NCBI GenBank assembly: GCA_037305845.1
Contig: CP147778.1
Location: forward strand, 1,120,001 to 1,184,000
DNA: 64,000 nucleotides
DNA from: Candidatus Freyarchaeum deiterrae
GTDB taxonomy: Archaea > Asgardarchaeota > Jordiarchaeia > Jordiarchaeales > Jordiarchaeaceae
Reading direction: 5' to 3'
Below the pieces are notes generated by a model. It was not told where the DNA came from, ran no database searches, and saw only the letters and a program-made list of their open reading frames with translations. A program made the translations under genes and the position numbers. Below, one piece after another: positions 5,487 to 32,707 of the stretch (position 1 is the stretch's first letter; every line of letters starts with the position of its first letter).

Positions 5487-5834
5487 ATGGCTAAACAGGC
5501 AAAAAAGAAAAACAAGGAAGAAACTGTACCAGAAGAGAATATGGTTTTTATTGGAAAAAAACCGACAAAGTAGATTCACGTTAGTGTTCTACGTCGAATG
5601 AGTTACGTTCTGGCTTGCGTTATTCAGTTTAATCAGGGTGCGAAAGAAGTAAGAGTTGTGGCGCGTGGAAGGGCGATTTCCAAGGCTGTTGATGTTGCGG
5701 AGATCGTACGCCAGCGTTTCTTGCCTGAGGGTGTAAAATTGGGTAAGATTACTATGGGCACCGAGATTATGGGAGCTAGTGCTGACGAAAAACGTAATGT
5801 TTCCACTATTGATATTCAACTCCTAAAAGCTTAA
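5487..5834 (+). CDS. albA: DNA/RNA-binding protein Alba, intron-split: join(5487..5568,5599..5834), 105 aa
   Basis: GGAGGT then ATG 5487. Exon 1 ends ...[10 protein letters not shown]; exon 2 gives MSYVLA...[16 protein letters not shown]...NVSTIDI. Splicing restores GKKPTMSYVLA. Confidence 0.92.
5569..5598 (+). other. 30-nt BHB intron in alba
   Basis: CGAC-AA^A-GTAGA...TCTAC-GTCG-AA^T; contains in-frame TAG. Confidence 0.88.
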
Positions 5835-6025
5835 AAGGTCTGAATCGGAATATTTCCTAGGAGTATGGTACTATACAAGTGGAAGTCCTATTAATTTGAA
5901 CCGAGTTACTCCAGTTTTTTTAGAATTGTAAGGTTTGTAAGAATTTTTTATAACTGTAATTCGTTCAAATAGAAAATATATAGCAATAAAAGTTGAATTA
6001 ATATAAATTATTACGGGGTTAAATA

Positions 6026-6388
6026 TTGCCAAATATTGAGTATGAAAAAACAGGTAAGAAAACTAGTATACATAGTGACTCAATTCCAATAGAAACGAAG
6101 ACTCTCGAGGATGTTAGGTGCGGAAACTGCGGATTGCCTCTCCTTATCCATGTTTTTTGGAGAGGTGAGAAGTACGAGCGCATAGTTGAGTGTAAGAAAT
6201 GTGAGATAAGTTTCTCGCTGGAAGGAAATCATAAACCTATCGATACAAAAGCAAATCCTGTGGGTAGTAATGTAAATCCTATTGATGCTAAAACAAATCC
6301 TGCTAAAGAGGCCAAACCAAAACCAGCTAAGAAGAGTAACGATGACAAAAAGGAAAGTATGGTGGATCGGCTTGTTCGATCATGGTGA
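6026..6388 (+). CDS. Small Zn-ribbon protein with Lys/Pro-rich tail
   Basis: CGNC and CKKC pairs; internal NPIDxKxNP repeat. Confidence 0.6.
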   Translation: MPNIEYEKTGKKTSIHSDSIPIETKTLEDVRCGNCGLPLLIHVFWRGEKYERIVECKKCEISFSLEGNHKPIDTKANPVGSNVNPIDAKTNPAKEAKPKPAKKSNDDKKESMVDRLVRSW

Positions 6389-6436
6389 TGGAAGAAAGAT
6401 GGCTTGAGATTTAATTTTTTATAGGCTAGTGAAGTC

Positions 6437-7018
6437 ATGGTAGAAAAGGTCAGATTCGAGTGTGTTAAGTGTGGTAATTGTTGCAGGGATAAGAATTTCA
6501 TAATAACAATTACGGATAAGGATACTTTTCTACTGGCTAATCATTTAAAATGTGATCTTAAAGAACTTTTATCGAAGTATATTGGTTTTTATCAGGTTAG
6601 GAAAGAACTTGAAAACAGACTAGTTTTTCCAGCTATTTCAACATATAGAGGTAATGCTTTCCTGGGATTAAGAAAGAAGAGCGATGGTTCCTGTTTGTTT
6701 TTGAGGGATGATAATCTTTGCGGAATTTATGCAGCTAGACCTATGGTGTGCCGAAGTTTCCCTTTTACTTTTGAAGTTAAGGAGGGATGGCTTTCTTGGG
6801 GTCTAATGGCGAAAGCGGAGGAGATTTGCCCAGGATTGGGACAGGGTGAAATAGTCTCTGAGGAAAGTTTAGAAAAGATGGGGAGAGAAATAATTAGGAA
6901 CCTTAAGGAGTACAGAAAAGTAGTTTCAATTTGGAACCATCACGCAAAAGTTGAGCAGCTAGACCCGGCCTTACTGGTGAAGACATTTCTCGAAGAAGCA
7001 AATCTTACTCCTCAATAA
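6437..7018 (+). CDS. YkgJ family cysteine-cluster (Fe-S/Zn) protein
   Basis: FECVKCGNCC, CLFL, CGIYAARPMVCRSFPF, CPGLG. Confidence 0.88.
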   Translation: MVEKVRFECVKCGNCCRDKNFIITITDKDTFLLANHLKCDLKELLSKYIGFYQVRKELENRLVFPAISTYRGNAFLGLRKKSDGSCLFLRDDNLCGIYAARPMVCRSFPFTFEVKEGWLSWGLMAKAEEICPGLGQGEIVSEESLEKMGREIIRNLKEYRKVVSIWNHHAKVEQLDPALLVKTFLEEANLTPQ

Positions 7019-7263
7019 ACTTAACAAAATATTTTTGCCAGTTAGAGAAGACTAAAATTTTGGGATAAGCGTTAATTTTGCATCAAGTTAAAAGAACTGT
7101 TAAAAAAATTAGATAATTTTAGCTCATTACCTAGGGCGAGATTGATATTAAAAATTAAATTTTGAGGCTTAAATCTATTTTTTTAGAGTTGAGGATAATA
7201 TTTAATAGCATAATTAACCATAATAAATTGGCTCTTCTTGAATTGTTGGGGAGTGAGTCAATA

Positions 7264-7767
7264 TTGAAATTAGAGGAAGCGGCTCGGAAGGCTATAGACC
7301 TTTTAAGAGAAGCAGGCGAAAGTGGAATATATAATATCGAACTTGCGCAAAAACTAAAAGTTCCAAAACGGCGCGTTTATGACATAGTGAATCCTCTTAA
7401 ACCCTTGGGGCTAGTCGAAATAAAAAAGGAAAGGGGAAAAACAAAAATCTGCTGGGCGGGGAAAACCGAGGCGGTACTTAAACCAGAAAAAGAGAAGATT
7501 CAAGAAAAAGAAAAAAATCTCGTAAAAATTGAAACCGTAAAGCTGGTAGAAGATAATCCGCTCATTGAATCAGTTACAGGAGATCAGGGAGAAGAAGGTT
7601 TTAAATTCAATTGTGCGGCGTTAAGAATAAGTTGCGGCAACGCGTTAAAAGCTTGTAGAGTGTATCACGATGGATTCGAGGTAGTTGTTGAAACTGATGG
7701 AGGGAACTTGTTAGTGAAGCCTAACTCCCTGAAACCGAAGACTCCAAAAGTAAAATCAGTATTTTAA
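7264..7767 (+). CDS. E2F/DP-like winged-helix DNA-binding protein
   Basis: LAQKLKVPKRRVYDIVNPLKPLGLVE...ICWAG matches the E2F RRxYDxxNxL signature. Likely TTG start at 7264. Confidence 0.72.
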   Translation: MKLEEAARKAIDLLREAGESGIYNIELAQKLKVPKRRVYDIVNPLKPLGLVEIKKERGKTKICWAGKTEAVLKPEKEKIQEKEKNLVKIETVKLVEDNPLIESVTGDQGEEGFKFNCAALRISCGNALKACRVYHDGFEVVVETDGGNLLVKPNSLKPKTPKVKSVF

Positions 7768-7843
7768 TCTTTAAAAATAGCCGAAAAAATTCATAAACTG
7801 AAAAGAACTGGAGTAGTCTTGAAGTAGGGGTTATAACAAAATT

Positions 7844-8221
7844 TTAAACAAGTTCCATTTTTATTCTGCTGCCTCTCTTTACTTTTTCAAATATTTCTAG
7901 ATTGCTAGTGATTTTCCCCACAATGTTTACTTGGGAATAAGGCTCAACTTCTTCAAAAAAGATGCACAATGAATCACCTTGACTCCAATAAGCTAAGGCG
8001 CCCTTCTCAACTTTTTTTGTGGGTTTCTCTAATCCCTTCTTTATACTCACAGGAAAATAAATTTCCTTTCCTTTCCAGATGTTTACTACACTAGAAATTG
8101 GAAGAGCATCTCGGAGCGCCTCTACTGTTCGAGAAGCATAAATTCTGTTTAGCTCACCCTCAGCTTCGCCTACTCTCTCGACAATAAATTTTACCCTAAA
8201 CCTTGACAAACTCTCAGACAT
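7844..8221 (-). CDS. Cyclophilin-like fold protein (DUF369-like)
   Basis: LPI.S.V..W..EIYF, GALAYW.QG.SLCIFF, VNIVGKI. Confidence 0.8.
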   Translation of the reverse strand: MSESLSRFRVKFIVERVGEAEGELNRIYASRTVEALRDALPISSVVNIWKGKEIYFPVSIKKGLEKPTKKVEKGALAYWSQGDSLCIFFEEVEPYSQVNIVGKITSNLEIFEKVKRGSRIKMELV

Positions 8222-8407
8222 AGTTGGTTACCCGAATTATTTTTCTGTGCAGAAGTAAATAAAAAAGTTTCCCATATTATTTTGTGAAACATGACACGAA
8301 GATTTCGGAGATTATTAATTTTAAAACTTTCTTAGGGAAAGAATTCAAACTCTCTTTTCTGAGCATAAACGAACTCCGGCATAACCTGTGTAGGAATTTG
8401 CGTTTTT

Positions 8408-9787
8408 TTAGAGGTAGTCTATTCCATTTTCTTTTTTGCACAAGAATTTTTCGTGGCACCATGTGAAAGATTTGTGTTTTTTGTAGATTTTGTCTATAGA
8501 ATCTATGATTTTTTCTGAAACGTTGGAACCATAAATTTTTGGAGCTTTTTTCATTATGCTAGGGACATCATTCTTGTAAATGTAATATATGAAGTCCGCT
8601 AGATTCTCTAAGGGTGGTGTGAGTATGTTTGATTCAGACATGACGGATTCTGGTCTATCCGTGTTGAAGCGACAGGTTAATGATGCGCATTCATCAATCA
8701 AATTAAGTTCTTCTTGCTGGGATCCACTATCTGTGAGACTTGCCCAGCAGTGTCCAGAGCGGAAGAATTCAATTACATTACCGTAACTTTTCCACAGAGG
8801 AGTGAATAAAAAGTTACCATTCTCTTCGGATAGTTTTTTGATCAAGTCGGTTAGACCATAATGTGTAAGTCCTGTCTTCATGGCGGTTAATTCCACAAGG
8901 CAGACGTTCATTTTGTAGTCTAAAACAAGTTTTTTTATAGCGTTAACAATGTTTTTGAATCGGGTTTCCGTGAGGTTATCTCGACGGTGCATATCAATTC
9001 TCAACCAATTATCCTGCTCAAGTTGAGGGTATATATCAAAAATACTATTTTCCGGTTTGTGATTTTTGGTGTACTCTACAGCATCTACCACACTGTTACC
9101 ACAAATTGGAATTAATTCGGGATCATACCCTTCACGAACAAGGTTCTCATAGTTAATTTCGTGTGGTGCAATAAAGCAGAAGGAACTTGAACCACATATA
9201 AAGGTGTCAATTTGTTCGGGGAATGGTTCATTTCTATCAATACACCAATCCGAAGTCCACTGACCGTTTGTAAATTCTTCAAAATCAATTGCCCCCTTCA
9301 CAAAATCAAACATGGAGCGGGGGTACATACCTCTTAATCCAGCTTCATTTTGAACACATTTTCTTCCCAGACCATAACTCCAGGCCAAGGGTACGACTCC
9401 AGCGGTTAATGTATCGCCGTGCACGCAGGGTATGAATTCTGTTTCGGGATAATTCTTTTTCAGATACCTGCCCAATTTTACCGTTTTAGAAAAGAGGTCA
9501 ACAAACTTGTCCGCCATGTCACCACGAATATTTAGATTCGCTACGAAACGTTCGTCTAAATGAAATTCTTTTAAACCGTGCCCTAAAAGCTCATCGAAGT
9601 GTTGGCCTGTGTGAACTACTCCGACAGGTTTCCCCTGTTTCTCACACTCAAGAACTAGGGGGAATTGCTTATAAAAATCAGGCTTAGTTGCCACAGTCAC
9701 TAAGAGTACATAGTCTTCGGTGGCGAGTTCCTTGATTCTATCTTCATAGATTTCTGGTTTTTGCAGGTTGATGTCCCACGAGCTCAA
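8408..9787 (-). CDS. wecB: UDP-N-acetylglucosamine 2-epimerase family
   Basis: TKPDFYK, HTGQH, VHGDT, EAGLR, TDSGSQQEE, TDRPE. Confidence 0.85.
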   Translation of the reverse strand: MSSWDINLQKPEIYEDRIKELATEDYVLLVTVATKPDFYKQFPLVLECEKQGKPVGVVHTGQHFDELLGHGLKEFHLDERFVANLNIRGDMADKFVDLFSKTVKLGRYLKKNYPETEFIPCVHGDTLTAGVVPLAWSYGLGRKCVQNEAGLRGMYPRSMFDFVKGAIDFEEFTNGQWTSDWCIDRNEPFPEQIDTFICGSSSFCFIAPHEINYENLVREGYDPELIPICGNSVVDAVEYTKNHKPENSIFDIYPQLEQDNWLRIDMHRRDNLTETRFKNIVNAIKKLVLDYKMNVCLVELTAMKTGLTHYGLTDLIKKLSEENGNFLFTPLWKSYGNVIEFFRSGHCWASLTDSGSQQEELNLIDECASLTCRFNTDRPESVMSESNILTPPLENLADFIYYIYKNDVPSIMKKAPKIYGSNVSEKIIDSIDKIYKKHKSFTWCHEKFLCKKENGIDYL

Positions 9788-10104
9788 GTTAAATGCCCCT
9801 TTCCCAATTTTTAACGGGATAGAACTAACTACTGACTGTAATCGTATTAATATTGGAGATATAAGATTAACTTAAAAGCTTTGGAAGAGGCAAATTGGAG
9901 TTTCAGATATTTGCTTTGATATTTTTTAAAGTAAAAGAACTATTTTTATTTTATTTCATTTGAGTTAAATTTATGTGTTTTAATACAAAAAAATTATTCG
10001 TGTAAAGAGTTAAATGTTTACTTATTGAAAAAACTTAATTGGTTTCAAACTAATATATAATAATAGACAACTTACCAAAATGATTAAAAAGTGAGGGTTG
10101 TTCT

Positions 10105-10488
10105 TTGCAAGTAACCTCTAGACTTGAAGCCCTTCAAAAACTCCTTGAGAGGATTACGAAGGAAGGTTCCCTAAAAGCTTGCGTCGTCTCTTCAATTGAA
10201 GGCTTTGTTATGGCATCCGCAGAGTCTACGGGATTTGATAAAAAAATCGCGGCGGCAATAGCTTCCTTCGCATTCTCAGCAGCTAAGAAGACAAAAAGTG
10301 AATTGGGGCTTGGAGATTTGAGGGATGTTTTAATAAGATGCACAGAAGGCAAAGCTGTTTTCAGGGCGGTAGAGGTATCTCCGAGTGAATCATTTATACT
10401 CTCAGCCATTATTCCTCCTCAAACCAGATATTATAACAGAAGAATCAATATGGCCGCGCGGGAAATTAAAAAACTCTTTTTAGAGTAG
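10105..10488 (+). CDS. Roadblock/LC7 domain protein
   Basis: VVSSIEGFVMAS...IAAAIAS...ELGLGDLRDVLIRCTEG. Confidence 0.85.
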   Translation: MQVTSRLEALQKLLERITKEGSLKACVVSSIEGFVMASAESTGFDKKIAAAIASFAFSAAKKTKSELGLGDLRDVLIRCTEGKAVFRAVEVSPSESFILSAIIPPQTRYYNRRINMAAREIKKLFLE

Positions 10489-10614
10489 AATTCTTTTTTT
10501 AAAAGTTGACAGTTGTGTAGAAATAAATACGGGTCGGATTCAGCTCTTTTAGAAATCGTTATAACCGAATTTTTTTCTTATGATATTTTTAGGAGTTAAT
10601 GGAGAAGGTTTTAC

Positions 10615-11322
10615 GTGTATAAAAAGGCTGAAACCATTATTTCAGTTCTAAAAAATCTAAGAGAAATAAAAACGCTCGATATTGAAGTTTTCAGAAGTAT
10701 AGTAGAAGATCCAGATCTTTTCAACTTGTTGACTACAAAAGGATATAATGATTCAGTCGAACAAAGGATTACCTTTGATTCTGAGTCTGTACTTCAGATA
10801 TCACTAGTCGCCCTAGAATATGGTGCAGATGTAGAAGAGGTTTGCAAACTATTAAGCTGGAAAGAATTTGAAGCTTTTTCAAAAAGTGTACTGGAAAAAA
10901 ACAATTATTTTTGCATCCAAAACTTTAGATTTAAACACAATCAAAAACGGTATGAAATAGATGTCGTAGGTTTTAAAAAACCATTGATACTGTGCATTGA
11001 TTCCAAGCATTACAAAAAATCAGGTAGGAGTAATGTTTTAAGAACTTACTGTAAAAAACAAATCGAGAGAATTGAAGCCCTTTCAAAAGTTTTGCCTGAA
11101 ATGGTTTCAAAATTAAGATTAATTGAATGGAAAGAAGCAAAAATAATACCTTTAATAGTCACACTACTAGCCGAAGACATAGATTTTTCGGAAGGAGTTC
11201 CCGTAATTCCATTTTTTAAACTTAACAATTTCATTGTGGAGTTGCCAGCGCACATTTCCGAAGTACATCAGATTCACACGAAATTCCCCAAGTACACCAG
11301 GCTAGAAGATTATAGGGCATAA
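10615..11322 (+). CDS. PD-(D/E)XK restriction-endonuclease-like protein
   Basis: LSWKEFE, EIDVVG, IDSKH. Confidence 0.75.
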   Translation: MYKKAETIISVLKNLREIKTLDIEVFRSIVEDPDLFNLLTTKGYNDSVEQRITFDSESVLQISLVALEYGADVEEVCKLLSWKEFEAFSKSVLEKNNYFCIQNFRFKHNQKRYEIDVVGFKKPLILCIDSKHYKKSGRSNVLRTYCKKQIERIEALSKVLPEMVSKLRLIEWKEAKIIPLIVTLLAEDIDFSEGVPVIPFFKLNNFIVELPAHISEVHQIHTKFPKYTRLEDYRA

Positions 11323-11379
11323 ACTTGAACGCGGTATATGTTCATAATAAAATATTATTTGTGAGGTAATAGATGATCA

Positions 11380-11515
11380 CGCAGCAACCCACGTGAATGC
11401 GATTAAATACATCCGTCGGATAAGATACAGCAAAGCCATTCTCGGCGGGCTGCACCACCATTATTTTCGGTTTCGGGAGGTTGCGTAACAGACGAAATTA
11501 TTCACCTCCACGAGG
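11380..11515 (+). mobile_element. Relic of integrase/transposase C-terminus
   Basis: Reads RIRYSKAILGGLHHHYFRFREVA* (stop 11488). LGGLHHxY is typical of rve-type integrase C-termini. No upstream gene body. Confidence 0.55.
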
Positions 11516-11525
11516 TTCATATTTT

Positions 11526-12017
11526 TCATATAAAAAATTGTATTATATTATAATTAGCAATATTTTTAGCAAGGTCTAATGGTGAAACATCATAGTTATT
11601 TTTCAAATCTCTATTTGCCCCATTTGATAATAATATCTTTATTAAATCTCCCCTACCTCTTGACCAAAAAACAGCTGTCGATAACGGAGTATTGCCGTAA
11701 TTATCTTTAAGGTCAACCTCTGCATTATTTTCTATCAAGTATTTTGCTATTTCTGGTAAATATTCTGAAGCTGTAAAATGCAGAGCGCTCCAGCCCGCTG
11801 AATCTTGTAAATTTATATCTGCCCCCATTTTGATGAGCGCTTTTATGATTTCTATTTTATTATCAACGACTGCATGCATTAATAGTGTCCTTTCATCCCT
11901 ATCACGAAAATTTATATTAATTCCTTCATTTATTAGCTCTGTTAAAGATTTCAAATCTCCTTTATCAACAGCTGCAATAACTTTTTTTTGATCAGTTCTC
12001 TTTGTACTCATACTCAT
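11526..12017 (-). CDS. Ankyrin-repeat protein (probable immunity protein)
   Basis: Ankyrin repeats RTLLMHAV, GWSALHFTA, GNTPLSTAV, SPLDLA; very low GC. Confidence 0.85.
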   Translation of the reverse strand: MSMSTKRTDQKKVIAAVDKGDLKSLTELINEGININFRDRDERTLLMHAVVDNKIEIIKALIKMGADINLQDSAGWSALHFTASEYLPEIAKYLIENNAEVDLKDNYGNTPLSTAVFWSRGRGDLIKILLSNGANRDLKNNYDVSPLDLAKNIANYNIIQFFI

Positions 12018-12183
12018 GACTCCAATTTGATTTTGGACTTTCAATCTGATATGAATATGGATTATTCATACGTTTTTTAAATTCTTTTTGTAAGTCCTTC
12101 AAATTGAGCTTTAGTTTTTCGTTTCGAAATTCATGTCCACGTTTGTGCCATAAATCATATTTTCCTTGAATTACTTGTTGCAT
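11992..12183 (-). pseudogene. GH-E (HNH/EndoVII) nuclease toxin tip, orphan or degenerate
   Basis: YDLWHKRGHEF...NNPYSYQIESPKSNWSHEYE resembles the GH-E consensus; overlaps the ankyrin gene start. Confidence 0.6.
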
Positions 12184-12246
12184 AAACTATCCTCCGATTA
12201 TTCATCATTTTTTGAACTATACCCATGGTTTGGAATTATTTGAAAG

Positions 12247-12783
12247 TTAGATAGCAGACATTATTTCCGTGAATACTTTTTGATAGACCTCGTCTCTGTT
12301 ATTTCTCGTCAAGTTGAGTATCTCTACATCCTTCCTTTTCTTAACTTCATCAACAAAAGGGTGTTGAACATTTTTTCCAATTGTTCCCAATATAGGTTTT
12401 GAGGAATCAAATGCTTCACGCACCGCAACGACAAACTCTGATGCAAATAACTCCATCTTTCCAATTTCATCAATCACAATCAAATCTGCTTTATCAACCG
12501 CCTGAATAAGTCCCTTCACCCCTATATTTTGGATATTTTCAATAATCACACCATATTTACCTACTCTGTACCGACTCCTCACATCGACCTTAGCTAAAAA
12601 ATCCTGTTCTCCAGTCAGAAGATTAACTATAAGAAAACCTACGCGGATATTTTTATCACGCACCTCAGGTGTAATCACACCTCCAACTATCCGGTTACGA
12701 GACCGAACTTCTTCAATAATTTTGTTGATTAAGCTGCTTTTTCCAACTCCTGGAAGCCCTGTAATCAACAAATTAACTTTCAT
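12247..12783 (-). CDS. THEP1-family NTPase
   Basis: GLPGVGKS, RVGKYGV, IVIDEIGKMEL. Confidence 0.92.
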   Translation of the reverse strand: MKVNLLITGLPGVGKSSLINKIIEEVRSRNRIVGGVITPEVRDKNIRVGFLIVNLLTGEQDFLAKVDVRSRYRVGKYGVIIENIQNIGVKGLIQAVDKADLIVIDEIGKMELFASEFVVAVREAFDSSKPILGTIGKNVQHPFVDEVKKRKDVEILNLTRNNRDEVYQKVFTEIMSAI

Positions 12784-22178: not shown

Positions 22179-22328
22179 TCAATCAGAGCCTATCACAATC
22201 TCTTTGTTCACGATCTCCTTACCCTCTTCATCGAGGATAATGAGATGGGCGGAACATGAGAGTCAGCAGTCATAGGATCGCATAACCATTTCCAGTAGGT
22301 TAAGGACCTTTGGGTCTATTTCGGGCAT
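22179..22328 (-). CDS. vhuU: Selenocysteine-containing hydrogenase C-terminal peptide VhuU (49 aa; TGA at 22263-22265 = Sec)
   Basis: GGAGGA then MPEIDPKVLNLLEMVMRSYDC-U-LSCSAHLIILDEEGKEIVNKEIVIGSD*. Supplies the Ni-binding motif missing from the upstream large subunit. Confidence 0.88.
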
Positions 22329-22357: not shown

Positions 22358-23671
22358 TTAAGTTTTTATCATGGGTTCGGGTAACTTCAATTTTTCAAGA
22401 ATCTTATCCTCAAATATTTGCTTAGCCGTCACTAGGATTGATTTTTCCACTGTGGCTATGTTATGATTGGTGGCAACAATGAGGTTTGCTTTGGTGCATA
22501 TTCCGTTGTCATCTGACCAGTAGTGATGTATAAGTGTTCCACGAGGAGCTTCTAATATGCCTGCACCATTACCCTGTTTAGGCTCCACATCTGCAAGCTT
22601 AACATCGGTACTGACTATATCGGGGTCTTCAAGTAGAATCTTTGCTTTCTCTACAGCTTCAACCAGTTCAACTATCCTAGCCCAGTTATAAGCTAGGGTA
22701 GCATTGCATGGTCTGCCAACAGTATCCCTATATTCCTTGAATGCCTCCTGAGCCAGAGGAGTCTCCATTTTTTCGACAACATTTAGGCGTGGCAAAGGCC
22801 CTGCACGCCAAATTCCGTCTGGATAACCCGCCGGCTTATAGAATATGTGTGTCGCATAGGAGTAAGGTGCTACGTGTTCAGCTATGTATTCCAAATAATC
22901 TTTCTTCGGGAAATCTGCAACAATTTTACCTTCGGGACTCATAACCCTGACCGTTGCCTTCCCAAAGATGGTGTGCACGCCTTCATTGGCAATACCTACG
23001 TGGTATGAATCAAAAACTCCTAGCTTTGTTATAACATCTAGGTAGTCTGTAACAACCTTCTTAGCAAGGTCTACAGTAAAGTTGGTGAGTTCCAGTGCCT
23101 TGTCAATCCTTTTTAACTGTTCATCGCGTTCCTCCTCTGTCAGAGATTTAGACTGACCTCCAGGAACAGAAGTGACTGGATGTATAGCTCTTCCACCTAT
23201 AAGGAAGCAAAGTTCCTGTCCAATTCTCATCAATTCCAGTGCTTTTTTACCCACATCAGGTAGATTTTTAATTACTGTAATCACGTTACGGTATTTCGGC
23301 TCAGCGAGAGGACCTAACAGAAAGTCTGGCGCAGCTAAGGCATAAAAGTGTAAAGCGTGACTGGAAATATATTTTGCCTGTAAGAGGAGTTCTCTAAGCT
23401 TTAACGCGGGCAGGGGTGGAGTAACATCCCAAGCAGTCTCAACAGCGCTTACCGCTGCTAGGTGGTGAGCCTCGGGGCAGATACCGCAAATCCTTGGCGC
23501 TATTCGAATCACCCGGTCGAGATTACGGCCTTCTAGGAATTTTTCAAAGAAACGTGTGACTACTACACCGAAATGGGCGTCTTCTACTGTGTTATTTTTG
23601 CCTAGCTTTATTACGATTTTTCCGTGTCCCTCAAGTCTGGTTGCTGGTTCAATAACAATTTCTTTACTCAT
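22358..23671 (-). CDS. mvhA: F420-non-reducing [NiFe(Se)] hydrogenase large subunit (group 3c, split form, VhuA/MvhA)
   Basis: TRLEGHG, RICGIC, EAPRGTLIH; lacks the C-terminal DPCxxC. Confidence 0.92.
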   Translation of the reverse strand: MSKEIVIEPATRLEGHGKIVIKLGKNNTVEDAHFGVVVTRFFEKFLEGRNLDRVIRIAPRICGICPEAHHLAAVSAVETAWDVTPPLPALKLRELLLQAKYISSHALHFYALAAPDFLLGPLAEPKYRNVITVIKNLPDVGKKALELMRIGQELCFLIGGRAIHPVTSVPGGQSKSLTEEERDEQLKRIDKALELTNFTVDLAKKVVTDYLDVITKLGVFDSYHVGIANEGVHTIFGKATVRVMSPEGKIVADFPKKDYLEYIAEHVAPYSYATHIFYKPAGYPDGIWRAGPLPRLNVVEKMETPLAQEAFKEYRDTVGRPCNATLAYNWARIVELVEAVEKAKILLEDPDIVSTDVKLADVEPKQGNGAGILEAPRGTLIHHYWSDDNGICTKANLIVATNHNIATVEKSILVTAKQIFEDKILEKLKLPEPMIKT

Positions 23672-23674
23672 ATT

Positions 23675-24586
23675 TTATTTCGCCTTCCTTACGGTTTTTG
23701 ATACTATGCCCGATGGCAGGAAGTAGGTATAAAAGGTTCCGGCAACATCACCGACTCTTTTTACAAGTTCCTCTGGGCTTATTGCCTCATAATCTACTAT
23801 GGAGCCCAGTGCGCTAATCATCTTGGCTCCTTGGTCTATTACATTCGGTCCTGGACCGTAGCATCCCGTACAGGGCGATCCCGCCCTTGTACACAAGGCA
23901 CCGCAGCCTTCACGTGTCGCGGGCCCCATGCAAACGTATCCCTGTTCCAATAAGCACTTCTTTGGATCCGGTATCCCTTCATAGTCTCTCTTTAACTGTT
24001 TAATAGTTATTACTTGGGATTTTTCTCTTGGACACTCGTCACATAGAGTACGAGTTGGTGGTGGCGGTAGCTCGCCTTTCAACAGACCCACTAATGCGTC
24101 TGCAATGTTCTGTGAAGTTACCGGACAACCGGGTAGGAAAACTTCAAAATTCACTATTTTTTTGTTAGGCACAATAAAGTCTAACATCTTTGGAATATCT
24201 TCATCAGGAATAGAAGGTTCTTCAAGACTTTCTGCTTCCATAAATTTACGTTTGAAAGCTTCATCCATAGTAGAAAGATTAAGCAATCCGTAGATTCCAC
24301 CATAGGTGGAACAGCTGCCCAATGAAATCAGAGTTTTAACCTTCGCCCTCAAAGTCTTTAAGATGTGTACATCTTCCTCTGTCCTGCAGACACCTTCAAC
24401 AATTCCGACATCGATTGAGCCGTCCTTGTAACTCTCTAAATCCTTGTACTTGAAGTCGGTCACTACATGCCAGAAGACAATGTCCAACTCCGGCAGAATG
24501 GGTAGCAGGCCTTCGTAATTATCTAAAAACGATTGGTAACAACCCCAACAACTGGCCAACGAAACCATAGCTACTTTAACAGGCAT
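23675..24586 (-). CDS. mvhG: Hydrogenase small subunit MvhG
   Basis: SCWGC, GSCSTYGG, PGCP, CLLEQG..CMGP, CTGCYGP. Confidence 0.92.
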   Translation of the reverse strand: MPVKVAMVSLASCWGCYQSFLDNYEGLLPILPELDIVFWHVVTDFKYKDLESYKDGSIDVGIVEGVCRTEEDVHILKTLRAKVKTLISLGSCSTYGGIYGLLNLSTMDEAFKRKFMEAESLEEPSIPDEDIPKMLDFIVPNKKIVNFEVFLPGCPVTSQNIADALVGLLKGELPPPPTRTLCDECPREKSQVITIKQLKRDYEGIPDPKKCLLEQGYVCMGPATREGCGALCTRAGSPCTGCYGPGPNVIDQGAKMISALGSIVDYEAISPEELVKRVGDVAGTFYTYFLPSGIVSKTVRKAK

Positions 24587-24605
24587 TGTTCAAAACCTCC
24601 AAATT

Positions 24606-25065
24606 TTACTCCTTATCTTTTCTGAGCGGACTAGGTCCCAACTCCTTCAGTTTTTTCACAAAATCGTTCATAACTTCAACTAAAACATTACCTTCACTGG
24701 CTGAAATCCACTCCAACCTTAATCTCTCGGGTTCAATACCGAGCTGTTCAATTAACTTTTCGAGAAGTCTAATTCTCTCCTCAGCCCTGTAGTTTCCAGT
24801 AACATAGTGACAGTCACCGTGATGACACCCCGCTATAAGCACACCATCAGCACCCAATTCAAAAGCTTTCAAAACAAACTGAGGATCGACACGACTACTA
24901 CACATAACCCGAATAAACCTAGCATTTGAGGGATACTGCATCCTACTAGTACCCGCCATATCAGCGCCGGCATATGAACACCAATTCTGCGCCATGTAGA
25001 CAAATCTACGAAGCTTTGCAGAAGATGCCGACAATTCTTGGTTTAAATTCTCCGTCATTACCCAT
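24606..25065 (-). CDS. mvhD: MvhD [2Fe-2S] subunit, intron-split: join(complement 25016..25065, 24606..24984), 142 aa
   Basis: AGGTGA then ATG 25065: [16 protein letters not shown]|[12 protein letters not shown]...RVMCSSR...GCHHGDCHY. Intron removal restores the CNWC motif. Confidence 0.92.
24985..25015 (-). other. 31-nt BHB intron in mvhD
   Basis: CTGC-AA^A-GCT..GTAGA-TTTG-TCTAC..GGC-GCAG-AA^T; shifts frame and contains in-frame TAG. Confidence 0.9.
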
Positions 25066-25225: not shown

Positions 25226-25440
25226 ACAGCTTTATCCGCCAATTTTTAAAAAATAACAAACCGGAATTATTTCTACATAGAACGGAACCAGCTATATTTC
25301 TCGGATTAGTACGCCCTTTTTTTAAAAAATTAGGACTTATTACATGGAGTTGGCGCCTGTTTTGTTCTAGTCAATTATAATCACATTTTTGATTTAAAAT
25401 AATTCATGAAAACAGATGCAGAGATCCATTTGAAGTTATA

Positions 25441-25560
25441 TCCGAGTTCAAGAGCATTAAAAGGACAGACATCTCAACAACTTCCACAGAAACTAACTAA
25501 TTCCCAACATCAATCAGAGTTCTAATACGGGAAAGCTATGGAATGTGGGGACATATACGA
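25441..25560 (-). pseudogene. Degenerate 4Fe-4S ferredoxin/NuoI-like fragment
   Basis: Minus strand reads FCGSC*DVCPFNALELG, with stops and frameshifts upstream. Confidence 0.45.
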
Positions 25561-25695
25561 AGCGAATAAGAGTATGGTTCTATTTTTAAAACCTCTGATA
25601 ATCCTTAAGATTATTAGATGTGGCGAGGTCTTGTTTATAGGCAAGTCTAAAAATAGCGTAACTTGTTTCGTTTGAGAATTTGCCGGTGACCCTTT

Positions 25696-26724
25696 GTGAC
25701 AACTTTGAAAGTGCTGTTTAAAACTGTACAGGGGCTTGAAGAACCCACTTCGCAGGAGATTCTTGAGAAACTGAGCGCTATTAATTTGATCTTCTCCCCC
25801 TATGGCCCACAAGGATGGATTAAGTGTGAAATAGAGGATCGCATATTTAGGGATGTAGGAAGACTAAGGTCAATTATTGAGGCTTATGTGATTTTACGGG
25901 AGGAAGATTACGACGAGGGGTTCTCAATTGATAATTTTGCGGATGCGGTGGTAACTGAGATTCCTGTTTATGCTCCTAACGCCCGAAAAATTTCAGTTTC
26001 AGCCTACTCAAGTCACAGAAAACCAAGCCAAAAGGAGATACAAGGAACTTTTGCGAGGAGAATCGCCAAGGAACTTAACGCTGAATGCAATCTTAGGAAT
26101 TATGATACCGCTTTAAGAATAACCTTACTCAGGAGAATAGCGCTTGCAACCATAAACCTGGAAATACAGCCAGGAAACATGCCAAAGAAACTTGAAACCC
26201 ACCCAACACCAGTACTTCCCCCCATAGCGTATTGTATGGTCAGGTTAGCGTCCCCACAGAAGGGTGAACACTTGCTCGACCCGATGTGTGGTTGTGGAAC
26301 AATACCATGCATGGCGGCATTAGAGTGGGAAAACCTTAGAGTTACAGGGTCGGACATTTCCAGTGAATATATATCCTGCGCCAAGAGAAACGCTGAAACC
26401 TTAGGGGTAGCGGATAGAGTAAAATTTATGGTTAGTGACGTAGCAGAACTCGCAGAAAAAGGAGTTGAAGCGGATATAATCTCAGTTAACCCACCGTATG
26501 GAATAGCCATACCAACACAAAACGAGACGGAAAAACTGTACGACTCGATATTCAACACAGCTGATAAAATTCTACCAAAACAGGGTAGAATCATCATAAT
26601 AACACCCTACCCTCAACAAGTAGGAGAAGCGGCAAACAAAAAGAAGTTCCAGAGTATCAACACCTACAAAATCCACGAAGGAGAATTACCCAGAACAATC
26701 CAAATCATGAAAAAGTTACAATAA
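25696..26724 (+). CDS. THUMP-like SAM-dependent RNA methyltransferase (Trm14/UPF0020 family)
   Basis: LDPMCGCGTI, GSDIS, NPPYG. Confidence 0.85.
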   Translation: MTTLKVLFKTVQGLEEPTSQEILEKLSAINLIFSPYGPQGWIKCEIEDRIFRDVGRLRSIIEAYVILREEDYDEGFSIDNFADAVVTEIPVYAPNARKISVSAYSSHRKPSQKEIQGTFARRIAKELNAECNLRNYDTALRITLLRRIALATINLEIQPGNMPKKLETHPTPVLPPIAYCMVRLASPQKGEHLLDPMCGCGTIPCMAALEWENLRVTGSDISSEYISCAKRNAETLGVADRVKFMVSDVAELAEKGVEADIISVNPPYGIAIPTQNETEKLYDSIFNTADKILPKQGRIIIITPYPQQVGEAANKKKFQSINTYKIHEGELPRTIQIMKKLQ

Positions 26725-26842
26725 AAAATAGAGGTACATACCTCAAACTCTTTTCGAATTCTTCCAGCTAAGGTCACCGTATTTACTGGAATATTCCTTA
26801 GAAAATTATTAAAAAAGAGAAAAGAAAAAATTTGATTCGATT

Positions 26843-28801
26843 CTACTTTTGCAGGGCGGCTTCTATTTCAGCCATCACTTGTTTGAACTTGAAGTGTTGC
26901 TCGTCTATAGCTCCACTTGGGCAAGCAGCGGCACAAGCTCCACAGCCTTTGCACAGTATGCTGTTTATATTTGATTTATTATCTACAGTCATGCCGATTG
27001 CTCCGTATGGACATACATCTTGGCATACCTTGCATCCAGAGCAGAGTTCCTCGTCGACGACGCTAAAGTAGGGCTCGATCTCCACTTCACCCATACCCAT
27101 GAGTGCCATGGCGGCTGCAGCTGCACCCTTGCCTTGAGCTACTGCGTCAGGGATATCTTTTGGTCCTTGAGCCATGCCGCATACGAAGACACCGTCTGTA
27201 AGGGTGTCAACTGGGCGTAGCTTGGGGTGTGCTTCCATCAAGAATCCGTCTGCACTCTTGGAGAGTCGGAATAAGTGCTGTATTTCGGTAGTTTCCTTTC
27301 TGGGAATCACCGCTGATGCTAGGACAACCAGGTCCACTTCTAGTTCCATGAGTTGGCCGAGTAGCGTATCTTCCGCGCGGACTAATAGTTTTTCTGTTCC
27401 GGGGACTTGTCGGACTTCTGCCACTCTGCCTCGAACAAAGTTTACGCCGTATTCTCTTCCCGCAATCTCGTAGAATTCATCGTAACCTTTTCCAAAGGTC
27501 CGCATATCCATGTAAAATATGAAAACCTCAGCGTCAGGATATTTTTCCTTAATCTGCCTCGCGTGCTTTACGCTATAAGTGCAGCAGACTCTGGAACAGT
27601 ACTGGAATATCCTCTGGTCACGCGAACCTACACACTGAATGAACGCTATTCGCTTCGGCTTCTCATGGGTTGATGGAACAATAACCTTGCCACCCGTTGG
27701 GCCGAACGAACTAAGCAGCCTCTCCAGCTCCATGGAGGTGATTACGTTTGGTAAACGGCCATAACCATACTGGGGCAAGTCAAACGGAGTATATACATCA
27801 TAGCCAGTAGCTATTATAACAGTGCCCACGTTCAACTCTATCTCTTTCTCTTGCTGGTTGAAGTCAAGAGCCTCAGGCTCACAGGCCTTCACACACAGCA
27901 TACACTCTATACACTTATTTCTATCAATGGTGTAAAGGTTAGGAACAGCCTGCGGGAAAGGAATGTACGCCGCTCTTCGCGCACCCATACCTAATTCAAA
28001 TTCGTTGGGAACATACACTGGGCAGACCTCAACACATTTTCCACAACCAGTGCATTTTCCAGCTATCACGTATCTCGGATGTTCAACTATCTTCACTTTG
28101 AAGTTGCCTACATATCCTTCAACGCTTTTGAGTTCGCTATAGGTATGGATTTCAATATTCGGGTTACGAGACGCTTCCACCATTTTCGGAGTCAAAATAC
28201 ATGCGCTGCAGTCCATAGTTGGAAACGTCTTGTCAAGCTGCGCCATTCTCCCTCCAATAGTGGGAGACATCTCAATAAGGTAAACCTTGAATCCCGCCTT
28301 AGCAATGTCCAGCGCAGCTGAAATTCCAGCGATACCGCCTCCAACTATTAGGCACTCTGGTGTAACCTTTACTTTCTGAACCTCCAGTGGTTCCAATGCC
28401 GTAGCTTTAGCAACAGCAATCCTAATCAGATCCTTTGCCTTTTCCAACGCTTCCTCCGGTTGCCTCATGTGAACCCAGGTATCATGCTCCCTAATATTCG
28501 CCTGCTCAAAAAGAAACTGGTTCAACCCGGCCTCCACACACACTCTCCGGAAGGTCGGCTCATGAAGCCTCGGACTACAAGCTGCAACCACTACCCTGTT
28601 AAGATTCAGCTTCTGAATGTCCTCCTTAATCATCCCCTGTCCAGGATCAGAACACATAAAACGGTAATCTTTGGCCACCACCACATTGGGCAGGGTTTGT
28701 GCATACTCAGTCAAAGCCGTAGGACTCACTACACCAGCTATGTTCGTACCACAATGACACACATAAACTCCTATCCGTACTTCTTCTTCTTTTTCACCCA
28801 T
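26843..28801 (-). CDS. hdrA: Heterodisulfide reductase subunit A
   Basis: CHCGTNI, GGGIAG, DKTFPTMDCSAC, QCVGSR, CSRVCC, ferredoxin motifs. Confidence 0.96.
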   Translation of the reverse strand: MGEKEEEVRIGVYVCHCGTNIAGVVSPTALTEYAQTLPNVVVAKDYRFMCSDPGQGMIKEDIQKLNLNRVVVAACSPRLHEPTFRRVCVEAGLNQFLFEQANIREHDTWVHMRQPEEALEKAKDLIRIAVAKATALEPLEVQKVKVTPECLIVGGGIAGISAALDIAKAGFKVYLIEMSPTIGGRMAQLDKTFPTMDCSACILTPKMVEASRNPNIEIHTYSELKSVEGYVGNFKVKIVEHPRYVIAGKCTGCGKCVEVCPVYVPNEFELGMGARRAAYIPFPQAVPNLYTIDRNKCIECMLCVKACEPEALDFNQQEKEIELNVGTVIIATGYDVYTPFDLPQYGYGRLPNVITSMELERLLSSFGPTGGKVIVPSTHEKPKRIAFIQCVGSRDQRIFQYCSRVCCTYSVKHARQIKEKYPDAEVFIFYMDMRTFGKGYDEFYEIAGREYGVNFVRGRVAEVRQVPGTEKLLVRAEDTLLGQLMELEVDLVVLASAVIPRKETTEIQHLFRLSKSADGFLMEAHPKLRPVDTLTDGVFVCGMAQGPKDIPDAVAQGKGAAAAAMALMGMGEVEIEPYFSVVDEELCSGCKVCQDVCPYGAIGMTVDNKSNINSILCKGCGACAAACPSGAIDEQHFKFKQVMAEIEAALQK

Positions 28802-28863
28802 TCGGATTTCCTCCGAGATTTAATTTTTAAAGAGCTATATTAAATTAAATTATCGTTAAGAAT

Positions 28864-28931
28864 TTTCCCACGCGTATTTTTAGGAGGGTTGTTTCGTGGT
28901 TAACAGTTATTTTTGATATTTAATGTTTTCG
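28864..28931 (-). promoter_or_regulatory. Promoter/leader of hdrA, copy of the mvhD upstream element
   Basis: Near-identical to 25156-25225. Confidence 0.7.
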
Positions 28932-29082
28932 TTATCCCACATTTAATAAAACACAAAACTCAGTAGAGCTTATACGCAAATTAGAATCAAGCCTTTATTT
29001 AAAGCGACAAAATTATATCTCACTAAATTAATTTAATAAATACTTGAATTATAATAGAACTTTTAAAGGGGTTTATTTCTAA

Positions 29083-29694
29083 ATGGCGACTCTAAGGATA
29101 ATCTGCGATAACTGCGGGGCCAAGTTGCAATATTCCGAAGGTGAAACAGTTGTAACCTGCCCTTATTGTAATTGTGCCGTGGCACTAATAAAACCAGAAG
29201 ACGCCGAAGAACACTTCAAACGGGGGAACGACCATTATGAAAAGGGATTGCTTGGTAAGGCGATACGGGAATACAGAGAGGCGCTAAGAATAAACCCAGA
29301 CCATGCCAAAGCCCACAACAACCTGGGGACCGCTCTTGATGATAAGGGATTGGTTGATGAGGCGGTACGGGAATATGGAGAGGCGCTAAGAATAAACCCA
29401 GAATATGCCATAGCCCACTATAACTTGGGAAACGCCCTTTATGATAAGGGGTTGCTTGACGAGGCGATCCGAGAATATAGAGAAGCAATAAGAATAAAAC
29501 CGGACATCGTCTATGCACATAACAACTTGGGAAATGCTCTTGATGATAAGGGATTAGTTGATGAGGCGATACAAGAATATAGAGAAGCAATAAGAATAAA
29601 ACCGGACTTCACCGAAGCTCAACTCAACCTGAGTACGACCCTTAAAGCTAAGGGGCGGCCTGAGAGGCGATCAAAAAGTACAAAGAGGCGTTAA
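29083..29694 (+). CDS. Zn-ribbon plus TPR-repeat protein (last repeat frameshifted)
   Basis: CDNCG/CPYC; 34-aa repeats AHNNLG.AL.DKG..DEAI.EY.EA.RI.P. Confidence 0.85.
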   Translation: MATLRIICDNCGAKLQYSEGETVVTCPYCNCAVALIKPEDAEEHFKRGNDHYEKGLLGKAIREYREALRINPDHAKAHNNLGTALDDKGLVDEAVREYGEALRINPEYAIAHYNLGNALYDKGLLDEAIREYREAIRIKPDIVYAHNNLGNALDDKGLVDEAIQEYREAIRIKPDFTEAQLNLSTTLKAKGRPERRSKSTKRR

Positions 29695-29843
29695 GAATAA
29701 AACCAGACCCTGCCGAAGATTCCTGAGTATGCATGTATTCAGACTGCGATGAAATCTTTTTGTACGTTAAGCGGCAGAATTATATCTCCTCAAATTAATT
29801 TAGTTAATACTTGATTTATGATGGAACTTAGGGGTATTTTTAA

Positions 29844-30692
29844 ATGGCGACTCTAAGGATAACCTGCGACAACTGCGGAGCCCCACTGCAATACTCCAAA
29901 GGAGAAACAGTCCAAACCTGCCCTTATTGTAAGTGCACAGTAACACTAATAATAAAAACAGCAGCAGCAGCAGAAGAAGAGGAAGAAGCCGAAGAAATAT
30001 CAGAAGAGGAAATGGAAGAAGCCGAAGACCATTACAAACAGGGGGTTGCCCTTTATTACAAAAGGTTGAATGATGAAGCGATTGAAGAATTCGAAGAAGC
30101 GCTAAAAATAAAACCAAACTACGCCGAAGCCCACAACGACCTAGGAGTTGCCCTCTTAGATAAGGGGCTGATTGGTGAAGCAATCAAGAAGTACAGAAAG
30201 GCGCTAAAAATAAAACCAAACCTCGCCACAGCCCACTATAATTTGGGGAATGCCCTTAGAGATAAGGGATTGCTGGATGAAGCGATCCAGGAATACAGAG
30301 AAGCAATAAGAATAAAACCAGACGACACCGACACCCACCATAATTTGGGGAATGTCCTTAAAGCAAAGAGATTATTTGATGAGGCGATACGAGAATACAG
30401 AAAAGCAATAAGAATAAAACCAGACGACCCCGACACCCACAACAACATGGGGAACGCCCTCTACGATAAAGGGCTGCTTGACGAAGCAATCAAGGAATAC
30501 AGAAAAGCGCTAAAAATAAAACCGAGCTACGTTGAAGCCCATTATAACCTGGGGAACGCCTACTATGATAAGGGGCTGCTTGACGAATCGACACGAGAAT
30601 ACAGAAAAGCGCTAAAAATAAACCCAGACCTTATTGAAGGCATTCCTAAGGATCGCCGTAAGAAGATCCTTAAGGGTAAATGGTCATTTTAG
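29844..30692 (+). CDS. Zn-ribbon plus TPR-repeat protein (tandem paralog)
   Basis: Same N-terminus MATLRI.CDNCGA; acidic linker; six TPRs. Confidence 0.88.
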   Translation: MATLRITCDNCGAPLQYSKGETVQTCPYCKCTVTLIIKTAAAAEEEEEAEEISEEEMEEAEDHYKQGVALYYKRLNDEAIEEFEEALKIKPNYAEAHNDLGVALLDKGLIGEAIKKYRKALKIKPNLATAHYNLGNALRDKGLLDEAIQEYREAIRIKPDDTDTHHNLGNVLKAKRLFDEAIREYRKAIRIKPDDPDTHNNMGNALYDKGLLDEAIKEYRKALKIKPSYVEAHYNLGNAYYDKGLLDESTREYRKALKINPDLIEGIPKDRRKKILKGKWSF

Positions 30693-31029
30693 TTTAGAGG
30701 GTCTTTTTGGGAACAAAAGAGGAGGGTATAAAAGAAATATAACTCAGATGAACAGCGATCCAGACTTTGCTGATGCATACTCAGCTTATAAATGTCCAGG
30801 TAGTTTTTTACTATGTGAAGAAACTATTTTTCCCAAAATCAAGACCCTTTTTAACAGAACTAAATTGTGTGGAGTTTTTAAGAGATTTTACAGCACTTAC
30901 GGTTGCCACCAGAAAATGTTGTCTTTAGAAGAACTAAAGGCAGCGCACTAGACTGGTGTACACGCCCATAACAAATCTTTTCCACCTATCCTCCGAATAG
31001 GAATACGCCTACACAACAGGGATGAAGCA

Positions 31030-31488
31030 ATGTCCAAAAAAGCTGAGCTGGTAAACGTTCAGAAAAGGATTGACTCACCGAATACGGGCTCCGCCCTATT
31101 CGAGATATGTAAGTGGTGCACCTGGTATCAGAAATTGGAAGTTAAAACTCTTTTCGGAACTCACGTCAAGAAGCCCTACAAAAATTGTCCTAATTGCGGT
31201 TGCCCAACCACAATAATTCCTGATGAAATAGTTTGCGCGTGCGGGGTTTGTAGAAGGCTGCTCGTAGAAAAATTCGTAATATCCCTCAACAGCGTCAAAA
31301 AAGTCTCATCAGTAGAGTATGATTACGAGTGCTACAACTGCGGAAACACAACAAACATTACCTTTCTTCATGTATGCGGCGATGGAGAACTCGGAGAATG
31401 CGACGCCTTATCAAAAAACGAAGGAGAAAAACCCATGGGATTCGAGTGCATAAGATGCCGCAAGTATGTCCAAAATACCACAATCTAG
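31030..31488 (+). CDS. Cys-rich multi-zinc-ribbon hypothetical protein
   Basis: CKWC, CPNC, CGVC, CYNC, CIRC. Confidence 0.6.
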   Translation: MSKKAELVNVQKRIDSPNTGSALFEICKWCTWYQKLEVKTLFGTHVKKPYKNCPNCGCPTTIIPDEIVCACGVCRRLLVEKFVISLNSVKKVSSVEYDYECYNCGNTTNITFLHVCGDGELGECDALSKNEGEKPMGFECIRCRKYVQNTTI

Positions 31489-32074
31489 TCTTAAAGAAAC
31501 TCATACTTTTAAAAAAATCTATTTCCAAAGTTAATAATCTTTTTACGAGTAACCATCACACCACTAAAAAAAGAGCCTAATGAACTAATAATATCCGCAA
31601 AAATTCACCTCAAGCTTCACTCCAAGCTCTTAACCAAGTCATCAAAAGCCACAGAATATTCGGAACCAGAAAAACATGCTTCTTTTTAAACATGACCTGA
31701 GATTACTCTCCCTAAAAGATAATAAACAACAAACCGGAAAATGAATAAACAAAGCCCAACACAAAAAACACAAGAAACAATAGTTAGAACACGCCCACCC
31801 TACACAAAAAAAGAACGTGAATAAAGTCACACACCCCATTTTAAAACCCGAAAAAGTAGAAACAAAACAAACTCTAAACCCTCAAAAAACACGAAAACAA
31901 AACGACCAAACACACACAAAAACAACAAACCACCAGAAACTATAGCGGACAAAACAAGCAAATAATTTATAAATTAAAAACCCTACCGTAAGACGGCGCA
32001 AAACTCATACTAACGCGCCAACAAAAAACAACCACCAATTTAAATTTATTATGACCAAAAGAAGGTAACCAACC

Positions 32075-32707
32075 ATGGTCGAAGAACAAAAAATAGTAAG
32101 AAAAACAGACCCAAAATTCATAGAAGAAATAATCGAATACGGATCAAAATACTTCACAAAAGAAGAAATGGAAAGACTAAGAGCATGTATCCAGTGCGGC
32201 ACATGCGTTTCCGGTTGCCCTTCAGGCCGTAGAACTGCTTGGCGTATTAAGAAAATCTTTAGACGGGCTCAGCTGGGGTTGAAGGAAGATGCTCTGAAAG
32301 ACGAAGGGCTCTGGGACTGTACCACGTGTTTCACGTGCCAAGAAATCAGAGCTTAGGTTTATTATTACTTACTCTGACTTGAAAGATGTCCCAGAAAGGT
32401 GCCTACTACTGATGTTGTTCGTGTGATTCGTAATATTGCTTTTAGGAATGGTATTGCTAATCCGAAGCATTTGGCTACTTGTGGTTATCTTTTCAGGTTT
32501 GGTCATGGTGTTCCGATTAATGATGATACTAAGGCGGTTAGGAAGAAGATTGGTTTGGATGAACTTCCTGCTACGGTTCATAAGTATCCTGAGGGTTTGA
32601 AAGAGGTTAATACGATAGTTGAGGAAACTGGGTTTAAGAAAGTGGTTGACGACGCTCAGAAAGAGGCTCAACAGAAGGAGGCTCAGAAGAAAGATGAAAA
32701 GAAGTAG
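32075..32707 (+). CDS. hdrC: Heterodisulfide reductase subunit C, intron-split: join(32075..32344,32384..32707), 197 aa
   Basis: CIQCGTCVSGCP, then WDCTTCFTCQE|RCPRKVPTTD after intron removal; GHGVP; followed by hdrB. Confidence 0.93.
32345..32383 (+). other. 39-nt BHB intron in hdrC
   Basis: CAAG-AA^A-TCAGAG...CTCTGA-CTTG-AA^A; contains in-frame TAG and TGA. Confidence 0.9.

Follow-up and report, generated by a model that had tools for sequence, protein, structure and literature searches.

Short bulge-helix-bulge inserts in conserved genes of an Asgard archaeon, probable messenger RNA introns of the tRNA-splicing type

Can the tRNA-splicing pathway of an archaeon also serve ordinary protein-coding messengers? 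The question is raised by a window of 64,000 nucleotides (nt) of Candidatus Freyarchaeum deiterrae (contig CP147778.1, positions 1,120,001 to 1,184,000), in which alba, mvhD and hdrC are each interrupted by an insert of 30-39 nt. The three inserts share the geometry of a bulge-helix-bulge (BHB), the motif cut by the archaeal splicing endonuclease EndA. They are, very probably, true mRNA introns spliced out by the tRNA-splicing pathway. This interpretation had been put forward in an earlier note made from the sequence alone, and is supported overall by the analyses described here; the inserts, their common geometry and their coordinates are as the note had them. The interrupted genes are listed below in window coordinates.

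5487-5568, plus strand: alba exon 1, 27 codons and 1 nt, with a GGAGG ribosome-binding site on its 5' side, ending in the GKKPT motif
5569-5598, plus strand: alba intron of 30 nt, keeping the frame and containing a UAG; 5563-5566 pair with 5593-5596 in the central helix, and the bulges are 5567-5569 and 5597-5599
5599-5834, plus strand: alba exon 2; predicted spliced product of 105 amino acids (aa)
25016-25065, minus strand: mvhD exon 1, 16 codons and 2 nt including the first Cys of FCNWC, with AGGTGA on its 5' side
24985-25015, minus strand: mvhD intron of 31 nt, which shifts the frame; 25021-25018 pair with 24990-24987 in the central helix, and the bulges are 25017-25015 and 24986-24984
24606-24984, minus strand: mvhD exon 2; predicted spliced product of 142 aa; mvhD heads the mvhD-G-A operon
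32075-32344, plus strand: hdrC exon 1, 90 codons, ending in CTTCFTCQE
32345-32383, plus strand: hdrC intron of 39 nt, keeping the frame and containing UAG and UGA; 32339-32342 pair with 32378-32381 in the central helix, and the bulges are 32343-32345 and 32382-32384
32384-32707, plus strand: hdrC exon 2; predicted spliced product of 197 aa; hdrB lies directly on its 3' side

Structure and coding content of the interrupted genes

At all three sites a 4-bp helix, pairing exon 1 with the 3' end of the intron, is followed by an AAA bulge, an inner hairpin with a helix of 3-6 bp, the complementary 4 nt and an AAT or AAA bulge. The central helices are CGAC/GTCG in alba, CTGC/GCAG in mvhD and CAAG/CTTG in hdrC, and at each site all four pairs are Watson-Crick. 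Compared with shuffled sequences, the motifs alone fold with z scores of -3.2 (alba), -2.2 (mvhD) and -3.7 (hdrC), and of about -2 to -2.6 when flanks are included. Left unspliced, alba and hdrC contain in-frame stops and mvhD is shifted in frame. A cut after the second base of each bulge opens frames of 105, 142 and 197 aa, respectively, and regains the motifs KKPTMSYV (alba), IFCNWCSY (mvhD) and TCQERCPR (hdrC), the junctions reading CCGACAATGAGT, TTCTGCAATTGG and CAAGAAAGATGT. That the EndA rule restores frame and conserved motif in each gene, as the note had it, was confirmed by translation and by an offset test. Many other deletions of the same length keep the frame open without restoring conserved residues, and the offsets which do restore the motif lie only at, or adjacent to, the EndA cut (-2 to 0 in alba, -2 to 0 in mvhD, -3 to +1 in hdrC).

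Motif-free spliced alignment of proteins of relatives to 1-45 kb of the window revealed only these three well-supported insertions in otherwise intact genes; the 45-64 kb segment was covered by the genome-wide searches only. The exons are conserved as coding sequence. Synonymous and non-synonymous changes against relatives amount to 42 and 6 in mvhD, 34 and 13 in alba, 56 and 31 in hdrC, the first exons of alba and mvhD being too short to be informative alone. The synonymous excess in all three genes points, in agreement with the note, to purifying selection rather than decay. The split hdrC is the sole copy in the genome above the TIGR03290 cut-off. The genome hosts three other Alba-family genes and other MvhD-like domains; paralogs alone therefore do not exclude decay of alba and mvhD, conservation does. 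Public entries for the three genes are fragments of 78 (alba), 129-150 (mvhD) and 93 (hdrC) aa, and the partner genes are intact:

22358-24586, minus strand: mvhG and mvhA, in the same operon, downstream of mvhD
26843-28801, minus strand: hdrA
32709-33593, plus strand: hdrB, downstream of hdrC

The genome is a single contig of 3,576,204 bp, and the host a soil archaeon of the Freyarchaeia, an Asgard lineage as the note had suspected. According to the available passages of PMC11291895, this is a curated Freyarchaeota genome validated by long reads, in which more than 90% of tRNA genes carry introns. Only 17 tRNA genes were called by ARAGORN in the whole genome, as expected if most tRNAs hold several non-canonical introns.

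The machinery invoked by the note, EndA with RtcB as ligase, is present. Two EndA-family proteins are encoded, near genome 1,920,700-1,921,300 (plus strand) and 1,733,100-1,733,700 (minus strand). The alpha protein has the catalytic Y, H and K residues, its loop aligns with that of Aeropyrum pernix EndA, and its closest structures are Aeropyrum 3p1z, the best match in PDB (E 8e-43), and 3ajv. The second protein lacks the histidine, and would fit a structural subunit. A two-subunit architecture is associated with relaxed motifs and cbf5 splicing (PMC2738675), and the EndA of this host is predicted to be able to cut relaxed motifs. The one rtcB found in the genome is itself split by a relaxed BHB insert of 29 nt (genome position 1452824, minus strand), so that expression of the ligase may depend on the ligase itself.

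Folding and conservation indicate that, once transcribed, the intron would form a relaxed BHB together with the 6 nt that close exon 1. Given this motif, the enzymes encoded and cbf5 as a precedent, we infer that the two-subunit EndA would cut between bases 2 and 3 of each 3-nt bulge, and that RtcB would join the exons; the joined mRNA would direct full-length Alba, MvhD or HdrC, and the unspliced one would stop early or yield a protein without the first strand of the fold. Regulation of splicing, and the way in which it would outrun coupled translation, are speculative.

Introns in the genome and in its relatives

The note had also supposed that such introns form a genome-wide set, and a motif-free census supports the notion. 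Proteins from about 2.0 Mb of a relative belonging to another family (G006) were aligned to this genome with an aligner using no splice signals. Frame-breaking inserts of 20-80 nt with well-aligned flanks were counted, and BHB geometry was judged at the exact insert length. Such geometry was found in 12 of the 16 inserts, against 5.3% at random positions. In the reverse comparison it was found in 8 of 11 inserts of G006 (null 4.3%), in genes which are intact here, as EF-2. The rtcB insert is a near miss in the census, and a 191-nt insert in ahcY also fits the BHB. A test for shared introns returned 14 matches, versus 1 and 0 in controls; 8 were dropped, 4 because they resemble rRNA helices and 4 because they resemble conserved coding sequence. 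At the six counted sites, which include alba, cbf5 and gatE, this genome and G006 carry introns with different inner sequences.

The total is at least 21 introns in 18 genes, a lower bound referring to genes with a G006 homologue only. Besides alba, mvhD, hdrC and rtcB, introns were found in fbp, porA, nadE, moaE, tyrS, ahcY (three), a RuBisCO-like gene (two), genes for an Obg-type GTPase and a NADH:flavin oxidoreductase, cbf5, gatE, a pcm-like gene and two unnamed genes. The cbf5, gatE and pcm identities rest on known motifs, GQTISAPHM in the case of the pcm-like gene. The ahcY introns, of 56, 29 and 191 nt, lie at genome 1876393-1877066 (minus strand), and those of the RuBisCO-like gene, 18 nt apart, at 2174638-2174686 (minus strand). 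The cbf5 intron falls inside the codon for the catalytic Asp both at genome 1483446 (minus strand) and in G006 (L203), matching its position in Crenarchaeota. The first bulge base is A in 20/21 and 19/21 cases. The 21 introns show no relatedness to each other. Most reside within strongly conserved motifs, a feature which may partly reflect the detection method. Introns specific to G006 are found at L184, L202, L203, L211, L189, L190, L149 and L210, several inside GTP-binding or Cys motifs, in genes which, from their motifs, presumably encode EF-2, IF2, a ribosomal protein, a small GTPase (two), a hydrogenase and others. The note had spoken of many spliced mRNAs. The set exists, yet at least 21 introns in 3.58 Mb make it a matter of a few dozen, not hundreds, and the window holds more than its average share.

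Of the in-frame insertions of 18-81 nt without a stop, 107 in number, a single one has BHB geometry by the same test, and its bulges are non-A. By the same method about seven in-frame BHB introns were found, all with a stop, while about half of their shuffles have none. Though numbers are small, this suggests that unspliced messages have been selected to end early. An intrinsic scan of the genome, combining BHB, open frame and coding score, could not tell true registers from shifted ones, and no count was taken from it; an excess was seen in the strictest class only (18 versus 4-8), and a first version failed to recover the three introns of the window. The census also showed 23 short frameshifts (1-13 nt), and an apparent 2-nt frameshift without BHB interrupts a ferredoxin-like gene at genome 956675 (plus strand).

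Orthologues from relatives were aligned, as the note had advised, and the alba site proved to be shared across families. The alba intron occurs at the identical site in all five congeners, in three of five genomes of another family, and in one more distant genome (G023). In the other family it measures 27 (G006), 37 (G009) and 28 nt (G010), and the inner hairpins are unrelated. In G023 the central helix is CGGT/GCCG, a compensatory change from A-U to G-C. In the alba alignment 95% of cells retain pairing, whereas controls with slid partners reach 12-54%; 2 of 8 pairs have changed on both sides, but changes are few and the structure was derived from one member. At the hdrC site the 39-nt intron found here is replaced by different 30-nt introns in G003, G004 and G009, and no intron is present in G001, G002, G005-G008 and G010. 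In a close relative without the hdrC intron the codons at the site are incompatible with the motif. Outside the close clade of this genome no mvhD intron was found. Comparison of the sequences suggests an old alba intron with losses, an mvhD intron of seemingly recent origin and a patchy hdrC intron. As the intron sets of relatives are partly different, introns plausibly come and go at individual sites, and persist where the motif can be accommodated by the flanking codons.

Intron-free contigs and competing explanations

A full-length MvhD was found among truncated members of its cluster, and its contig comes from run SRR28530379. Pairs of assembled contigs, with and without introns, were compared among sibling public runs covering two organisms congeneric to the host, A and B; whether the runs are of RNA or DNA origin is unverified, and no paper naming them turned up in the searchable literature. 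Organism A and the window share about 82% identity. Its mvhD contig from SRR28530379 aligns with those from SRR28530382 and 383 over 6,774 nt with 0 mismatches and one 31-nt gap. The alba contigs from 378 and 379 align with those from 382 and 383 over 13,185 nt, with 0 mismatches and one 30-nt gap. Both introns are present in runs 382 and 383, both are missing in 379, and the alba intron is missing in 378. The intron-free mvhD contig is also present in a second sample. In organism B the alba intron is absent in 378 and present in 379 (one 30-nt gap, 3 mismatches in 1,068 nt). Each pair allows several gap registers because of short repeats at the junctions. The registers allowed by the three pairs are -2 to 0, 0 to +2 and -2 to +1, and their sole overlap is 0, the EndA site. 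Paired RNA and DNA libraries, in which the assembler kept the commoner form, would provide the simplest reading. If the contigs are DNA, introns of two genes in two species would have been lost precisely and simultaneously, which would still suggest a spliced RNA intermediate. A junction scan of JGI metagenomes gave two intron-bearing and two intron-free long alba contigs, uninformative about RNA, and cluster look-ups for seven other intron genes revealed no spliced form among the matches listed. In one contig (L039, 347-703) a public gene caller moved to TAG=Gln and read through the alba intron; introns of this kind can therefore produce false signals of alternative genetic codes.

Several observations weigh against the splicing interpretation. 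With lengths of 7-13 kb, and with coverage of intergenic DNA and of both strands, the SRR285303xx contigs look like DNA. Intron-free contigs belong to congeners, not to the organism of the window, and no pair of intron-free and intron-bearing contigs was found for hdrC. Direct repeats of 2-3 nt flank the junctions, which leaves some formal room for a library artefact. G007 and G008 carry exact intron-free alba alleles in DNA, so that loss at the DNA level does happen. Finally, the outer exon-exon helix is weak, with 0-1 bp beside the bulge and more pairs past a mismatch in hdrC and mvhD. It is absent from the minimum free energy structure of alba and interrupted in that of hdrC, and mvhD favours a second bulge of 2 nt. 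Because of this weakness the motifs of the window are to be regarded as relaxed BHBs, and fit those described for cbf5 (PMC2738675).

The introns may be real and the intron-free contigs nonetheless be DNA alleles, arisen by precise loss or belonging to a co-occurring strain, or library artefacts due to skipping of the hairpins. This is improbable, but deserves more credit than the other alternatives, and touches the contig evidence only, not the intron reading. Length and aspect of the contigs, retention of the organism B intron in run 379 and the short repeats are in its favour. Yet, introns of two genes and two species are lost in the same runs, in organism A without a linked single-nucleotide polymorphism over 20 kb, the common register is the EndA site, and precise loss through reverse transcription would itself require spliced RNA. 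Highly improbable is a reading of the genes as pseudogenes, disrupted by insertion of small hairpins, or as sources of truncated proteins made from internal starts. Internal starts exist (ATG at 5598 in alba, frames of 129-150 aa in mvhD), databases list such truncated products, and other Alba-family genes and MvhD-like domains are present in the genome. Truncated forms, however, would be without GKKP, without the leading Cys of FCNWC or without half of HdrC; the exons are under purifying selection, the alba site is kept across families despite different inner sequences, three quarters of the motif-free inserts have BHB geometry, and introns also interrupt tyrS and the only rtcB found.

Translational recoding, by stop read-through, frameshifting or hopping of the ribosome over the hairpin, could in principle dispense with splicing. 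The alba and hdrC inserts have lengths divisible by three, the host appears to recode UGA, and some gene callers take the alba UAG as Gln. This explanation has slightly less credit still, as intron lengths span all three frames, inserts at the alba site of relatives measure 27, 28, 30 and 37 nt, read-through would insert 10-13 residues into Fe-S and nucleic-acid-binding motifs, and recoding predicts neither BHB geometry nor intron-free contigs. An artefact of assembly or sequencing has practically no chance of being the answer; no point was found in its favour, the inserts recur with substitutions in independent assemblies, and the genome is reported as curated and checked by long reads in the passages available of PMC11291895.

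Other types of intervening DNA were considered and rejected. The core of group I and group II ribozymes takes some hundred nucleotides, the inserts measure 30-39 nt, and no Rfam match was found in the window. Ends are A...AA, not GU...AG as in spliceosomal introns. Mobile miniature repeats are not supported, since no intron of the window has a second copy in the genome; the best intron-intron score is 18, against a mean maximum of 18.3 in shuffled sequences.

Relation to known systems and other features of the window

Splicing by excision of true mRNA introns at a BHB has the cbf5 intron as closest parallel. The cbf5 pre-mRNA intron was reportedly studied earlier by Watanabe (2002) and Yoshinari (2006). 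Splicing has been confirmed only for cbf5, and introns in other genes have been merely predicted (Yokobori 2009, PMC2738675). As the cbf5 introns of Desulfurococcales and Sulfolobales (16-44 nt), those described here are short, lack open reading frames and have relaxed BHBs; the cut, predicted in our case, between the second and third bulge base, hetero-oligomeric EndA, placement in conserved motifs and loss in some lineages are further likenesses (PMC2738675). The cbf5 intron is itself present here at the crenarchaeal codon position, for which either shared ancestry or repeated gain may account. In contrast to that single gene, at least 18 unrelated genes are involved here, with roles in chromatin, energy, translation, cofactors and RNA ligation, with up to three introns per gene and lineage-specific sets. 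In the case of cbf5, cDNA demonstrated splicing; here it is deduced. The proposed mechanism does not differ from that of cbf5, and what is new, relative to the searchable literature, is the scale.

The non-canonical tRNA introns of Freyarchaeia and Atabeyarchaeia, as far as the available parts of PMC11291895 and of a 2026 preprint (bioRxiv 10.64898/2026.10.13.758758) go, share genome, motif and enzyme with the introns reported here, and likewise result from many separate gains with little sequence sharing. They lie, however, in tRNA genes; the passages available of PMC11291895 mention no introns in coding sequences, the words mRNA and cbf5 do not occur in the preprint, and its available part reports none as shown spliced in an Asgard cell. 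In Haloferax volcanii the mRNA of HVO_1309 is also processed by EndA at a BHB, but that intron resides in the 5' untranslated leader, breaks no reading frame and is a single case, cbf5 being called the only other example (PMC7714728). BHB introns in coding sequences of Asgard archaea were not found in the searchable literature, which mostly excludes subscription papers. The note had seen a bearing on XBP1/HAC1 splicing. As proposed for our case, a protein catalyses excision of a short frame-shifting intron there, and a tRNA ligase (RtcB in animals) joins the exons. The likeness stands as an analogy and goes no further, because in XBP1 and HAC1 it is IRE1 that cuts, and it does so at stem-loops, whereas tRNA endonuclease acts on a BHB; that splicing is stress-regulated and has one main target.

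Coding sequences of archaea are treated as intron-free except cbf5; in this Asgard order, dozens of introns reside in conserved genes, and annotation pipelines report the products as truncated proteins. Gene inventories and metabolic reconstructions of these genomes change accordingly. The gains and losses form a natural set for studying origin and persistence of introns, and the coexistence of mRNA splicing with coupled translation becomes testable in relatives of the eukaryotic host. One may go further, and imagine that Jordarchaeia/Freyarchaeia maintain a genome-wide, continually renewed layer of mRNA splicing by tRNA endonuclease and ligase which gates expression, early termination of unspliced messages being selected, as with the short introns of eukaryotes, while those within rtcB, alba and core energy genes would tie protein output to splicing capacity. 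The idea is tentative, and we would sooner bet against it; if true, it would offer a living prokaryotic model for the beginnings, among kin of the eukaryotic host, of intron-rich mRNA and of RtcB-dependent regulated splicing.

Other features of the window are worth recording. Two tandem genes with TPR repeats, between hdrA and hdrC, have no match in the congener regions compared. Of an oligopeptide transporter (OPT) gene, 687-695 aa long in relatives, there is a remnant which aligns over about 135 codons only, with a frameshift, and looks like an ordinary pseudogene, contrasting with the intron genes. UGA is apparently recoded as selenocysteine in the host, and a short frame that follows mvhA is a probable selenoprotein subunit of the VhuU type; it reads YDC-UGA-LSCSAH, which is the second Ni-binding motif, not present in the large subunit. 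The E2F/DP winged-helix domain (PF02319, E 1e-9) is found in a protein of 167 aa conserved in congeners.

29083-30692, plus strand: two tandem TPR-repeat genes
38731-39021, plus strand: OPT transporter remnant
22179-22328, minus strand: probable VhuU-type selenoprotein frame
7264-7767, plus strand: E2F/DP winged-helix protein

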